Positions 934 to 13,377 of a stretch of DNA of 13,856 nucleotides are shown here, piece by piece. The number at the start of each line of letters is the position of its first letter. Positions within the stretch are counted from its first letter, which is position 1. The position numbers and the translations under genes are program-made. Origin of the DNA: a virus; the IMG/VR virus record IMGVR_UViG_3300025000_001631; one strand, 5' to 3'. The notes under the pieces were generated by a model that did not search any database, was not told the origin of the DNA, and saw only the letters and a list, made by a program, of their open reading frames with translations.

Positions 934-977
934 TCACACATACCTCCTTATCTTGCGTGGGCTTCGCCCCACGATTA

Positions 978-1006
978 ATTTTACCATGGGCTGGGGGAAA
1001 AGTCAA
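978..1006 (-). promoter_or_regulatory. Sigma-A-type promoter, copy 1 of the reiterated module: -35 TTGACT (1001-1006), 17-nt spacer, TGg, -10 TAAAAT (978-983)
   Basis: Minus-strand sequence CCTTACTTGACTTTTCCCCCAGCCCATGGTAAAATTA. It is followed by the leader hairpin CGTGGG-GCGAAG-CCCACG and then AAGGAGGT. Confidence 0.6.
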
Positions 1007-1030
1007 GTAAGGTTAAATGGTATGAAAGCG

Positions 1031-1063
1031 TATAAGAAAACCCCACCTGCTAAGAGTGGGGTT
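1031..1063 (-). terminator. Rho-independent terminator after the 1072-1404 gene
   Basis: 8-bp stem aaccccac (1039-1046) / gtggggtt (1056-1063) with a 9-nt loop. On the minus strand it is followed by UUUUCUUAUA. It begins 6 nt after the TAG stop. Confidence 0.6.
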
Positions 1064-1071
1064 GTGAAGAA

Positions 1072-1404
1072 CTAGGTGGCAGGAGTAAAGTCCTGGACTT
1101 CTACTTGTAGGTCACCCCACCAGAAGCCATAATCAGTTAGGAGCACTGAATTGTCTTGAAGTAGATTGTGCTCTTCAATACTTGGCACAAAATCCCTATC
1201 TTCTGAGTATCTCACCCAAATTTCAGATATTTGAGCTAGATCCTTCCTCATGCTAGGGTGTGGCATGCTTTGTGGTATTAGTGCTAAAATAGTATTATCT
1301 GTGGATTCAAGAAACACATGATCTACACCCTCCCCTACGGCCTCTAGGGTAGAAATTATAGCCTGTTGGGTAGTGAGATTCTCCAGATTGATCACTGCAA
1401 TCAT
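1072..1404 (-). CDS. Hypothetical protein, 110 aa
   Basis: Track ORF. AAGGAGG lies 7 nt upstream of the ATG at 1402-1404. Confidence 0.65.
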   Translation of the reverse strand: MIAVINLENLTTQQAIISTLEAVGEGVDHVFLESTDNTILALIPQSMPHPSMRKDLAQISEIWVRYSEDRDFVPSIEEHNLLQDNSVLLTDYGFWWGDLQVEVQDFTPAT

Positions 1405-1416
1405 TGTATGGCCTCC

Positions 1417-2007
1417 TTAGCTTTCTATTATGACGTTACAATCTTTACAACCCCAGCAATAATCCACTACCTCACCCTGTTTGATATCTATTTGAACTTC
1501 TGCAGGTTTGTTACACTTAGGGCACAGTACCACGTCCCTAGGGGTAGGAGCCTTGTAGTGCTTACAGGAATCTGTGTGGATTAACTTGCACCCCTCGCCA
1601 TATGGGCCTTCAGGCCAAGGGGCATGGCATACTCCACCATCAAAGTGTACGCAACCTTTGGTATCAAGGGTGCCAATGTCAATTATCTCTAATTTAAGGG
1701 ACTCAGACTTAATCTCCTGAATATGCCCAGTATCATGTAAATACTTGATAATCTCATCATGGGTCAAAGTAGAGAATATACTAAGAACTTTAACCTGCCA
1801 CTGCTCACAGATACTCTCAGGATGTCCCACTATACGTTGTACAACCTCAGATAACTGATCCCATCTTATATACATTAATTCAGGTGCGGTGCAACAGGCG
1901 TCTCGGCTAACACGTTCAAACCCACTGAGATCTGTACCCTCTGGTAGCTCTGCTTTAATCTGTTTAATAACTTCCCCTATATTGCGTGGTGTTTCACTCA
2001 ATTTCAC
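1417..2007 (-). CDS. Hypothetical protein with a C-terminal Cys-rich zinc-ribbon-like region (CPKC-x18-CWGCKDC plus additional Cys/His); GTG start
   Basis: Track ORF. GGAAGGA lies 6 nt before the GTG at 2005-2007. Cys-pair spacing is typical of Zn ribbons. An HD-like string, THDEIIKYLHDTGH, is present but weak. Confidence 0.6.
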   Translation of the reverse strand: MKLSETPRNIGEVIKQIKAELPEGTDLSGFERVSRDACCTAPELMYIRWDQLSEVVQRIVGHPESICEQWQVKVLSIFSTLTHDEIIKYLHDTGHIQEIKSESLKLEIIDIGTLDTKGCVHFDGGVCHAPWPEGPYGEGCKLIHTDSCKHYKAPTPRDVVLCPKCNKPAEVQIDIKQGEVVDYCWGCKDCNVIIES

Positions 2008-11186: not shown

Positions 11187-11196
11187 AACTCTCTCC

Positions 11197-11751
11197 TCAT
11201 GCCATTTTATACATAATTATAAAAAACACTGCGCATATTAATACTAACCTGCCAATCATTTTGACTCTAGAAAATAAAGGCATTGCTAAAAATAACAACA
11301 AGGCCAACACTATAAATACAGGTTCAACCACATTACTCCACCCATTAGGCCCCCCACCCACATAAGTTAAAGGATTAACTAAGCTACCGTCCTTGATAAG
11401 CCTTGTAGTTACATGTATATGTGGGCCAGTTGTGTGTCCCGCACCATGTGTTCCTGGCACTCCCCCTGATAGACCTATGGTCTCTCCTGCTATTACATGC
11501 TGACCATAGGTCACATTGATTTGTGAGAGGTGGCCCACAACCATCTGTACACCATTGTCTAAGTCTACAAAGATGCACCTGCCCAACAATGGGTCAATTT
11601 TGATTAGTTTAATTACACCATCATTAGGTACTTGCACCTGAGTTCCAACAGGAGTAGCAAAATCTACTCCTGTGTGTGGTTTGGGGTGGAAATCATCCAC
11701 TTCAAGGTAGTCACTAGTAATAGGAAAATGAGCCATCTCAACATCTACCAT
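11197..11751 (-). CDS. M23 (LytM/lysostaphin-type) zinc metallopeptidase with two C-terminal TM helices, 184 aa
   Basis: HxxxD (PHTGVDFATP) and HxH (GTHGAGHTTGPHIHVTT) motifs in the canonical order, plus GETIGLSGG. The C-terminal hydrophobic stretches are VVEPVFIVLALLLFLAMPLF and IGRLVLICAVFFIIMY. GGGGGG lies 6 nt before the ATG. Confidence 0.85.
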   Translation of the reverse strand: MVDVEMAHFPITSDYLEVDDFHPKPHTGVDFATPVGTQVQVPNDGVIKLIKIDPLLGRCIFVDLDNGVQMVVGHLSQINVTYGQHVIAGETIGLSGGVPGTHGAGHTTGPHIHVTTRLIKDGSLVNPLTYVGGGPNGWSNVVEPVFIVLALLLFLAMPLFSRVKMIGRLVLICAVFFIIMYKMA

Positions 11752-11762
11752 ATCAATCCCCC

Positions 11763-11939
11763 CTAATAGTCATTAGGATCTTTATGCCACCAGTTCCTGA
11801 GCTTCTCCATATCCTCTTCAAGCTTACCTAAGGTGTGAGTCACAACTACTACAGTCAGTAATAGCAGCACTGCCATTATCTTACCCATTGTAGAAGCCAT
11901 TATAAAGTGTGATACTAGGACTCCTATTAGTACCCACAC
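11763..11939 (-). CDS. Holin-like small membrane protein, 58 aa, two TM segments and a charged C-terminus (GTG-start form VWVLIGVLVSHFIMASTMGKIMAVLLLLTVVVVTHTLGKLEEDMEKLRNWWHKDPNDY); absent from the track
   Basis: Hand translation of the 11752-11950 gap. GGGGAG lies 5 nt before the GTG at 11937-11939. The TAG at 11763-11765 is followed directly by the SD of the M23 gene. An alternative in-frame ATG would give 46 aa. Confidence 0.5.
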   Translation of the reverse strand: MWVLIGVLVSHFIMASTMGKIMAVLLLLTVVVVTHTLGKLEEDMEKLRNWWHKDPNDY

Positions 11940-11950
11940 GCTAACTCCCC

Positions 11951-13297
11951 CTATTCAGATTTACCCCTCATGAGGATGCCCCACGTAGCATTCTCCCATG
12001 CCTTAGTAAATTCAGGGGTATTATCTTCTGCACCTGTCATACGATGGATGGTTTCATGCACTAGCGTCTTCCAACACTCTTCCTTAGATAACAAAAGACT
12101 TGCCCTTAACCATACAGTATCTGTCTTTCGCTCATATAGTCCATTGCACTCATTTCCATGCTCATCATATACATGCTCAGACACCTTTACAGTCCCATAA
12201 TCCCCTACATATAACTTACATAACCTCTTACACCACCCTAACATAGTTGCTTGCTCTGAATTAGGCTTGCGATGAAAGTTCTTAGTGGCTTGCGCTAACT
12301 CATGTAAATCGTTTGTATAGGGTACCCCTACTGTTAAAAATAGGTTCTTCCAAGCACTGGGAACATTTACTAACACTTTGTACCGGTGGTATCTTGCCTG
12401 GGTATCTGTTTCAGTACCAGTAGCCAAAGAGAGCTTATCCCCTAATTCTAGTCTAATAGCGGTTCTCCAGATTTCTACTGAGGGGCAGCGCCAAGAGGAT
12501 ACCCCTGCTTCAGCTTCTAGTGATGTAGGATTAACCATTATACCTTTAATAACTGCTCTGGCCAACTCAGCATCCTCTGTGTGTGCTAACAGTCCATTTA
12601 CCGCTTCCCTGACTTTACTTAGATCTACCATGTTGCGGTCACGATTTTTAATATTTGAATTAGTGAAATTGTAACCGAATATGCTATCCAAGGATGTAAT
12701 CAACACCCCATTAACAAATACTTGGCCCGAATTTTGGAGTAAGATGGAATCTGTGGATAAGAGCTCCTGCCCAACCCCACTCAGTACTGCGAAGGATTGT
12801 GTAGCTAGTGCAAGTTCTTCAGGTGTGCATTCCATGTAAATTGTAGTACCTTTGTGCACATCATTGTCTTCTAGATAGTAGGTCAATACATTAACCTCAG
12901 GATCTATATCTGAAGGTTCAAGTGCTGGGTGTAGAGTGAATCCATTTGTCTCAATAAAGACCTCCCTACCCTTTCTGAGAGCAACAAGCATACCCAATTT
13001 TGATCCCTCTCCGTAGTCTCCAGGAGCACCACTTTTACCACGCTGTTCAGACTCCCCTATAAGTAGCTTACCCTTGGTAAATCCACTGGGGTAGTTATGA
13101 ATAACTGCATACTTTCCGTTGTGGGTAATCGAAGTTTCATCACCTAAGATTGTCTTAGCAAATACATTGTTTTGAATAAATTCCTTGAGAGCTTCTAGAT
13201 TACCCCAATGAGGTAAATTATTTTCTGACATCCCTATTTCATACCTATGCATTGAATTGATCTCATTTATCATTTGTGTTATTGCACCTACACCCAT
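11951..13297 (-). CDS. 448-aa protein with a C-terminal SprT-like (HExxH) zinc-metallopeptidase domain; the N-terminal region may be a GHKL/Bergerat-fold ATPase (weak)
   Basis: The C-terminus LLLSKEECWKTLVHETIHRMTGAEDNTPEFTKAWENATWGIL parallels E. coli SprT LLLENGEAMLRQVVPHELAHLLV...HGKEWKWMMENVLGV (recalled from memory). In the N-terminus, EFIQNNVFA resembles an N-box, HNGKY a degenerate G1 and GDYGEGSKLG a G2, with plausible spacing. GAGGAGGG lies 7 nt before the ATG. Confidence 0.75.
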   Translation of the reverse strand: MGVGAITQMINEINSMHRYEIGMSENNLPHWGNLEALKEFIQNNVFAKTILGDETSITHNGKYAVIHNYPSGFTKGKLLIGESEQRGKSGAPGDYGEGSKLGMLVALRKGREVFIETNGFTLHPALEPSDIDPEVNVLTYYLEDNDVHKGTTIYMECTPEELALATQSFAVLSGVGQELLSTDSILLQNSGQVFVNGVLITSLDSIFGYNFTNSNIKNRDRNMVDLSKVREAVNGLLAHTEDAELARAVIKGIMVNPTSLEAEAGVSSWRCPSVEIWRTAIRLELGDKLSLATGTETDTQARYHRYKVLVNVPSAWKNLFLTVGVPYTNDLHELAQATKNFHRKPNSEQATMLGWCKRLCKLYVGDYGTVKVSEHVYDEHGNECNGLYERKTDTVWLRASLLLSKEECWKTLVHETIHRMTGAEDNTPEFTKAWENATWGILMRGKSE

Positions 13298-13348
13298 GTT
13301 TACACCCTCCTCTAAATTTGTGTCTCCCCTACATGAGAGCCTGCTTTA

Positions 13349-13377
13349 ATTTTCTCTCAAAACGAGGAGAAAGTCAA
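13349..13377 (-). promoter_or_regulatory. Sigma-A-type promoter, copy 5: -35 TTGACT (13372-13377), 17-nt spacer, -10 GAAAAT (13349-13354)
   Basis: Minus-strand sequence CCTTACTTGACTTTCTCCTCGTTTTGAGAGAAAATTA. Its -35-to-spacer segment is near-identical to copy 3. Confidence 0.6.

Follow-up and report, generated by a model that had tools for sequence, protein, structure and literature searches.

The window analysed here, a 13,856-nt stretch of DNA from the IMG/VR virus record IMGVR_UViG_3300025000_001631, carries all its genes on the minus strand, with intergenic DNA making up about 7% of its length (a tally of the gaps between listed open reading frames, ORFs). A short promoter–leader cassette recurs five times in these gaps, each copy being intergenic and aimed at the next gene. 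The copies, called P1 to P5, span 978-1006, 2934-2962, 4724-4752, 7996-8024 and 13349-13377 on the minus strand, from the start of the -35 hexamer to the end of the -10 hexamer, so that the -35 hexamers start at 1006, 2962, 4752, 8024 and 13377; an earlier reading made from the sequence alone (the sequence-only reading) had given exactly these five positions and this strand. Following the minus strand, the P5 unit comprises a 448-aa gene, a 58-aa gene, an M23 peptidase gene, a 72-aa gene and a terminator. Between the P5 and P4 units lie a gene resembling the major vault protein (MVP), which has no cassette, then a terminator and a small Cys-rich ORF. The P4 unit holds a UvrD-type helicase gene, four small genes and a terminator, the P3 unit six genes (including a DUF7376 gene and one for a YdjM-like membrane protein) and a terminator, the P2 unit four genes and a terminator, and the P1 unit a 109-aa gene and a beta-solenoid repeat gene running off the window. 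Most of these downstream genes are small ORFans. The arrangement is best explained, with a probability of about 0.8, by a lineage-specific family of promoters for host sigma-A RNA polymerase, each joined to a standard leader of ~40 nt and heading one of five successive transcription units.

Megablast with the whole window as query found no near-identical DNA among 50,697 phage records, and an exact-protein lookup of the window helicase gave no match. A 141,863-bp contig obtained from an IMG/VR motif scan, IMGVR_UViG_3300024999_000044 (hereafter the relative, of which L121 is one stretch and L314 covers a second cluster of cassettes), was used as a stand-in for the source genome in comparisons. 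From the small ORF through P4 to the start of the helicase gene, the window is matched without a difference by a 2.7-kb JGI metagenome contig (C687J13239_1008319), and the sample behind that contig therefore contains this phage or one very closely related to it. The window helicase is 52–54% identical to those of Bacillus phages CP-51, JL and Shanette and of the SPO1 group (52% for SPO1 itself). Judged by this identity and by the 142-kb size of the relative contig, the window looks like part of an uncultured, Herelleviridae-like relative of SPO1 and CP-51, and no hallmark structural genes occur in it.

The cassette core follows sigma-A grammar. The -35 element is TTGACT in all five copies, matching the consensus TTGACA at five of six positions, and the spacer is invariably 17 nt and T/C-rich. 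The -10 hexamer is GAAAAT in three copies and TAAAAT and AACAAT in one each, agreeing with TATAAT at four or five of six positions, with A2 and T6 invariant. The -10 element is followed by TA, a hairpin, an A-rich single-stranded stretch, GGAGG and the start codon, which lies 44–51 nt from the -10 element in all five cassettes. GGAGG is placed 8–9 nt before the start codon, usually within AAGGAGGT; the full Shine-Dalgarno (SD) sequence reads (A/G)AGGAGG in four of five copies and CAGGAGG in P2, and is situated 10–20 nt downstream of the hairpin. Conservation extends beyond the hexamers, with the blocks TAC-TTGACTTT and AAT-TA shared by the window and relative copies. In several details the sequence-only reading had described these flanks too strictly: CCTTAC upstream of -35 is exact in two copies, the family-wide invariant being TAC or TAT just before TTGACTT; the ATTA said to follow -10 directly is obtained only if the final AT of the hexamer is counted, the hexamer itself being followed by TA(A/G); and TGn, at -15/-14, occurs in four of five copies, the one at 13377 reading GAGA where its orthologue in the relative has TGG.

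The pattern TTGACT-N17-NANAAT has five matches on the minus strand of the window and none on the plus strand, compared with a mean of 0.06 and a maximum of 2 on both strands in 1000 dinucleotide-preserving shuffles, which bears out, within the window, the excess over shuffled sequence that the sequence-only reading had expected. Longer versions that include the flanks never occurred in 1000 dinucleotide shuffles, and for the 12-mer with at most two mismatches 10 matches were observed versus 1.96 expected. A weight matrix trained on 12 copies from the related phage, with no window copies used, scored the five sites at 37.6–43.9 bits, while nothing else on either strand scored above 2.1 bits. 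Because of this gap, the window can be said to hold exactly five copies and no weaker or degenerate extras. In two scans of viral contigs, each with at least 120 matches listed, large Firmicute-type phages often carried the core pattern, and alone it is thus not diagnostic of this lineage.

Copy by copy, P1 has the highest matrix score (43.9 bits; TTGACT, 17 nt, TGG, TAAAAT at 978-1006), a hairpin CGUGGG-GCGAAG-CCCACG at 956-973 (-10.6 kcal/mol) that is identical in the relative, and an SD-to-start region at 931-947, in which GGAGG (947-943) and a 9-nt gap lead to GTG 933 of the 109-aa gene; its orthologue has ATG at the equivalent place. In P2 (TTGACT, 17 nt, TGC, AACAAT at 2934-2962; 39.3 bits) the hairpin GAGGUUC-AGA-GAACCUU lies at 2912-2928 (-7.4 kcal/mol), and GGAGG at 2896-2892 stands 8 nt before ATG 2883 (region 2881-2896). 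P3 (TTGACT, 17 nt, TGA, GAAAAT at 4724-4752; 42.5 bits) carries UGGG-ACAGAAC-CCCA at 4702-4716, for which the orthologue has the 6-bp UGGGGC-AGA-GCCUCA; GGAGG at 4689-4685 and a 9-nt gap precede GTG 4675 of a 79-aa gene (region 4673-4689). P4 has the same core elements (TTGACT, 17 nt, TGA, GAAAAT at 7996-8024; 37.6 bits) and is 95% identical to its orthologue; its hairpin at 7971-7992, with the core GUGGGGA-GAA-UCCCCAC, is the most stable (-11.5 to -14.4 kcal/mol), and GGAGG at 7961-7957 is followed after 9 nt by ATG 7947 of the UvrD-type helicase gene (region 7945-7961). P5 is composed of TTGACT at 13377-13372, a 17-nt spacer without TGn and GAAAAT at 13354-13349 (38.2 bits), and its orthologue is found at L121 3215. 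Its hairpin CUCUC-AUGUAG-GGGAG (13324-13339, -5.4 kcal/mol) starts ~10 nt after the -10 element and is stronger in the relative, CCUCUCC-AAUA-GGGGAG(A); GGAGG at 13310-13306 lies 8 nt before ATG 13297 of the 448-aa gene (region 13295-13310).

The two GTG starts at 933 and 4675 had been proposed at exactly 8 nt from the SD sequence. The distance from GGAGG is 9 nt in both, and the starts are plausible because this spacing matches the 8–9 nt found at the three ATG starts; the mechanically called ORF start at 4720 falls inside the P3 leader. A TATGT(A/G)T block (GGAGGTATGT) follows the SD sequence in most cassettes of both phages (window 943-933, 2896-2883 and 4689-4675, and many L121 and L314 copies), and contains an ATG 1 nt after the SD sequence that is not the start codon. 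This block could reflect either shared ancestry or a tuned initiation region.

The hairpin, which the sequence-only reading had noted in three leaders, is present in all five, with stems that begin 5–10 nt after -10 and differ in sequence. P1, P3 and P4 belong to a GTGGGG/CCCCAC type, P2 has GAGGTTC/GAACCTT and P5 CTCTC/GGGAG; as RNA, the stems range over GUGGGGA/UCCCCAC, GAGGUUC/GAACCUU and CUCUC/GGGAG, with GGUCGAGGG/CCCUACGACC and GGGGC/GCCCC added in the relative. When the 30 nt starting a few nucleotides after -10 were set against every 30-nt window on that strand, the five leaders folded with a mean of -7.9 versus a background of -2.8 kcal/mol (Mann-Whitney p = 7e-4), and the cassette copies of the relative were likewise more stable than background 30-mers (p = 8e-7). 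The leader folding proposed by the sequence-only reading thus gave a divided outcome, the fixed position after -10 being significant and the leaders taken whole being unremarkable against shuffles. Sigma-A promoters usually start transcription 6–8 nt after -10, and the hairpin would therefore lie at, or within ~4 nt of, the 5′ end; with the predicted start 7 nt after -10, the stems would begin at about -2 to +4 relative to that end. A plus-strand scan flagged three of the leader hairpins as antisense terminators, but, with a T run of just 4 nt set 5–7 nt away from the stem, this assignment was rejected.

A fixed position combined with a variable stem sequence speaks for a structure in the RNA and not for a DNA site bound by protein. 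An inverted repeat at about +1 to +20, directly downstream of -10, does occupy the classic place of an operator, and it could be imagined as a repressor site for promoter shut-off with the flanks as protein contacts, like TF1 on SPO1 early promoters; the recurrence of GTGGGG-N3-5-CCCCAC and the conservation of flank and spacer beyond the needs of sigma-A would both suit such a site. However, stem sequence and loop length vary while pairing is kept, which is the signature of RNA structure, and among the 24 window ORFs scanned no DNA-binding-named Pfam family was found besides the helicase. A DNA operator is accordingly considered highly improbable.

An RNA-level role as a processing or binding site, the target of host RNase III (SP82 type) or of a phage RNA-binding regulator, was also raised by the sequence-only reading. 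GUGGGG...CCCCAC(C)GC recurs in P1, P3, P4 and several relative copies, which exceeds what a bare stabiliser would need. Three copies in the second cluster of the relative (L314 7142, 7883 and 11136) have longer leaders with ~45-nt imperfect stems closed by CAGCAGG...UGCUAG, which resemble SPO1 leaders (ACAGCAGG...) and are better SP82-type RNase III candidates than any window leader. RNase III requires roughly two helical turns, but the window stems have just 4–9 bp, far below substrate length. The P2 and P5 stems are unrelated in sequence, and a specific binder would therefore find no common sequence; no Rfam family matches the window, and a tRNA scan of it was likewise negative. In PMC4838370, which cites Panganiban & Whiteley 1983, early mRNA of the SPO1 relative SP82 is described as carrying Bs-RNase III cleavage sites. 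The window leaders are similar in being structured elements just upstream of genes, in what would be early transcripts of an SPO1-group phage, and differ in their short stems, the longer candidates being confined to the second cluster of the relative. A processing or regulator site in the window leaders is thus unlikely, and the RNase III proposal in particular did not hold up.

Comparison with the relative supports a promoter family. The two phages are 68–79% identical in long BLAST alignments (~75% overall), and the relative keeps all five cassettes at the same positions, with two further cassettes and their genes downstream of the P1 gene and nine more in a second stretch (contig 29.9-50.4 kb). 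The 42 kb sampled contains at least 16 cassettes, which lie at contig 7-43 kb and form two convergent runs. Promoter cores are 85–95% identical between the phages, whereas the first 150 nt of the downstream genes reach 57–68% in a crude ungapped comparison. This difference argues that the cassettes are under purifying selection. The small ORF and P4 region (7865-8197) is 88% identical to the relative versus ~75% elsewhere, and the ORF itself is nearly invariant.

The same comparison bears on the suggestion of a mobile or recombining promoter cassette that spreads within and between phage genomes and is conserved through recent copying. Spacer sub-types do exist (P3 and P5 share CTCGTTTTG-GAGAAAAT, and P2 and P4 share CTTGG-TT-CATG), the window P3 is 90% identical to the P5 of the relative over 40 nt, and the two cassette-plus-gene units of the relative that are absent from the window imply that gene-plus-promoter units have been gained or lost. 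Against mobility, five cassettes occupy the same positions in two phages differing by ~25% in DNA, so the duplications would be old and kept by selection; SPO1 has the same layout with different flank sequences; and next to the cassettes neither flanking repeats nor target duplications nor recombinase genes were seen, although no dedicated repeat search was made. A mobile cassette, part of the sequence-only reading, is therefore very unlikely, given the shared positions and the lack of any sign of independent mobility, and old duplications combined with gain and loss of gene cassettes are the likely history.

The terminal redundancy of SPO1 (NC_011421 bases 1-14000) provided a reference for a known early region. 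This stretch contains 12 sites of the form AAAAAGT-N2-TTGAC(T/A)-TTnCTAC...TGn-(A/C/T)ATAAT, plus one TTGACA match inside gene 37; judged by eye, a G+C-rich hairpin follows roughly half of the 12 sites, and most have AAAAGGAGAGGTT before the start. The window cassettes are like the SPO1 early promoters in forming many sigma-A copies with TTGACT(T), a 17-nt spacer, TGn and a -10 element, in having flanks and a spacer whose conservation is specific to the lineage, many leaders with a G+C hairpin and a very strong SD sequence (AAAGGAG in SPO1), and in heading short operons in one-strand runs, which are convergent in SPO1 and, here, in the relative. They differ in the flanks, SPO1 having AAAAAGT-N2 upstream of -35 and CTAC in the spacer, and the window phage TAC directly upstream and a T/C-rich spacer; in the hairpins, which in SPO1 follow an ACAG-type stretch ~10–13 nt after -10 (by eye) rather than 5–10 nt; and in the gene content of the units, where the window has a helicase gene, an M23 peptidase gene and others of greater length. 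Coliphages also have families of early host-polymerase promoters, T7 A1-A3 and T5 N25/P25/P26, which are near-consensus and capture host polymerase at the start of infection. The window cassettes resemble them as several very similar near-consensus housekeeping promoters, but differ in host group and motif details, and the coliphage promoters have no standard hairpin–SD leader.

By analogy with these phages, the cassette region may be of the early or host-takeover type of an SPO1-like phage. Alternatively, the promoters could serve throughout infection or be read by a phage-modified polymerase, since one cassette drives a replication helicase and another an M23 peptidase operon, neither of the classic host-takeover kind. 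Yet the elements fit the housekeeping consensus and are unlike the SPO1 middle and late consensus, and small ORFans predominate among the downstream genes, as they do in early regions. The motif class also marks the earliest genes in SPO1, whose early promoters are read by host sigma-A RNA polymerase (PMC13401047), and in the Listeria phage CKA15 (PMC12282133). According to PMC6873191, which cites Stewart 1998 (Virology 246:329) and 2009, the SPO1 host-takeover genes have promoters and ribosome-binding sites of the kind found in highly expressed genes. For CKA15 (Pecentumvirus, Herelleviridae), PMC12282133 gives early starts mapped by Cappable-seq, with TTGACTT at -35 and ATGxTATACTTAA at -16 to -5. 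These promoters are comparable to the window cassettes in TTGACTT, in an extended -10 element (ATGxTATACTTAA versus TGnNAnAATTA here), in their sigma-A-like character and in their position upstream of the earliest genes. Unlike the window cassettes, in which an AT-rich UP element is not evident, they mostly possess one, and a 5′ hairpin is not mentioned in the passages of PMC12282133 consulted. According to the same paper, some sigma-A-like promoters of CKA15 remain active until late, which would be compatible with longer service here (PMC12282133). Taken together, promoters that are not early or not host-specific appear improbable for the window.

The reading of the five copies as a host sigma-A promoter family is, in its promoter part, very probable on grounds of anatomy and comparison, since the match to the sigma-A consensus, the intergenic and gene-directed placement, the conservation of position and the layout shared with SPO1 and CKA15 all agree. 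The core idea of the sequence-only reading, host-polymerase promoters with a structured leader, is in this way upheld, and its extensions to RNase III and to a mobile cassette are not. The host RNA polymerase holoenzyme would recognise TTGACT-17 nt-TGn-(T/G)A(A/C)AAT and start transcription ~6–8 nt after -10, giving a transcript that begins at, or within a few nucleotides of, a short G+C-rich hairpin. An unstructured A-rich stretch, a near-perfect SD sequence, (A/G)AGGAGG, and a start codon 8–9 nt further on would follow, and the strong SD sequence would drive high translation. The 5′-terminal hairpin and the ribosome-occupied SD sequence probably shield the mRNA from 5′-end-dependent decay of the RppH or RNase J1 type. 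In Bacillus subtilis, the aprE leader (a 5′ stem-loop plus ribosome-binding site; Hambraeus 2002), gsiB, ermC and the SP82 polypurine/SD element (Hue 1995) are cited as mRNA stabilisers in PMC7509114 and PMC3997798. The window leaders share with these a hairpin at or near the 5′ end and a strong SD sequence shortly downstream, and differ in that their 5′-terminal position depends on a predicted start and that two of the five stems are weak. By this analogy, mRNA stabilisation by the hairpin is a tentative proposal whose odds fall slightly short of even.

Several observations weigh against the sigma-A promoter–leader interpretation. Three -10 hexamers have G in first position (GAAAAT) and a fourth reads AACAAT, each with only four of six consensus matches, and the strength of these promoters is therefore a prediction only. 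Whole-leader folding energies are ordinary compared with shuffles (z -0.07 to -1.7), and the hairpins of P3 and P5 have little stability (-4.3 and -5.4 kcal/mol). The P4 unit, with its helicase gene and further longer genes, is unlike the small-gene host-takeover operons of SPO1. For this phage, the early timing is proposed by analogy with other phages, and the sigma-A dependence and the exact start site likewise rest on analogy. The conservation of flank and spacer also exceeds sigma-A needs and is not explained by a promoter model alone. This extra conservation (TAC, the T/C-rich spacer, TA, and GGAGGTATGT in most copies) could come from shared ancestry of the copies or from an additional factor. 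In a more specific form of the latter, these elements, together with the GUGGGG...CCCCAC(C)GC hairpin, would make up a recognition unit for a phage-encoded factor that acts on DNA or RNA and switches off or re-programmes all early transcripts coordinately. This is a long shot, and if true it would represent a post-initiation mechanism of early shut-off not described for SPO1-like phages.

Under the sigma-A promoter–leader reading, knowledge of early transcription in phages is unchanged, the cassettes being the standard early-gene drive of this phage family. The same promoter design has been described for SPO1 since the 1980s–90s. The core motif has also been mapped recently to transcription starts in the Listeria Herelleviridae phage CKA15 (PMC12282133). 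The comparison does supply a validated promoter–leader motif with which transcription units can be annotated in an uncultured lineage of SPO1-like phages (five units in this window, at least 16 in the relative), and the compact natural series of terminator, promoter, hairpin and SD sequence could possibly be used as an expression part in Firmicutes.

Strong intrinsic terminators (z -3.8 to -7.5), all on the minus strand, precede four of the five cassettes, at 13442-13405, 4799-4779, 2992-2961 and 1063-1039, and would insulate these from the unit upstream. The one ahead of P5 (13405-13442) has a 17-bp stem and a U tract (-23.3 kcal/mol, z -7.5). The P4 unit is closed at 4779-4799 (z -4.1), 27 nt upstream of the P3 -35 element, and the P2 unit at 1039-1063 (z -3.8), 33 nt upstream of the P1 -35 element. 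The terminator closing the P3 unit (2961-2992, z -6.4) overlaps the P2 -35 element and shares sequence with that promoter, the 3′ arm of its stem holding the start of -35 (2957-2962) and its U tract serving as the P2 spacer; this overlap is kept in the relative, with a compensatory change in the stem. Two more terminators flank the MVP-like gene, one closing the P5 unit (10908-10937, z -6.2) and the other (8280-8309, z -6.2) standing between the MVP-like gene and the small ORF that precedes P4. They are mutually alike, and both read AGGAGA-N19-T run, which resembles the SPO1 middle-promoter consensus. The idea that they act as SPO1-type middle promoters was dropped because the relative lacks the first hairpin and has GGGAGA in the second; the motif is not conserved there and its presence in the window is probably due to chance.

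The gene between these two terminators encodes an 842-aa protein (8327-10855, minus strand) resembling the eukaryotic MVP, with matches to the Pfam families MVP_shoulder (6e-26) and Vault_3 and to MVP chains in the PDB (E ~1e-18 over residues 473–810). Its homologues in the phage database came only from three uncultured huge phages of 462–735 kb. The gene, which lacks a sigma-A cassette, is also kept in the 142-kb relative, and it may exceed the promoters in interest. The Cys-rich 49-aa ORF (8049-8198, minus strand) lies between a terminator and P4, directly ahead of the latter, with no recognisable promoter of its own. The 448-aa protein headed by P5 (11951-13297, minus strand) matches phrog_6077 (function unknown); an HExxH motif (HETIH) is present C-terminally, together with a weak hit to a metalloprotease. 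At the other end of the window (2-580, minus strand, ATG 580), 30-nt tandem repeats at about 158-451 encode the beta-solenoid (YdcK-type) repeat protein that runs off the window, and the plus-strand ‘SITKDS’ ORF at 158-451 was discarded as a mirror artefact of these repeats.

The helicase gene of the relative is broken after about codon 30 by a ~1.3-kb insert (L121 8709-10007) that the window does not have, and helicase matches in phages Goe19, SPO1L3, SPO1L5 and phi18 are likewise in two pieces. The insert and the split matches suggest the insertion of an intron, an intein or a homing endonuclease gene in this helicase.

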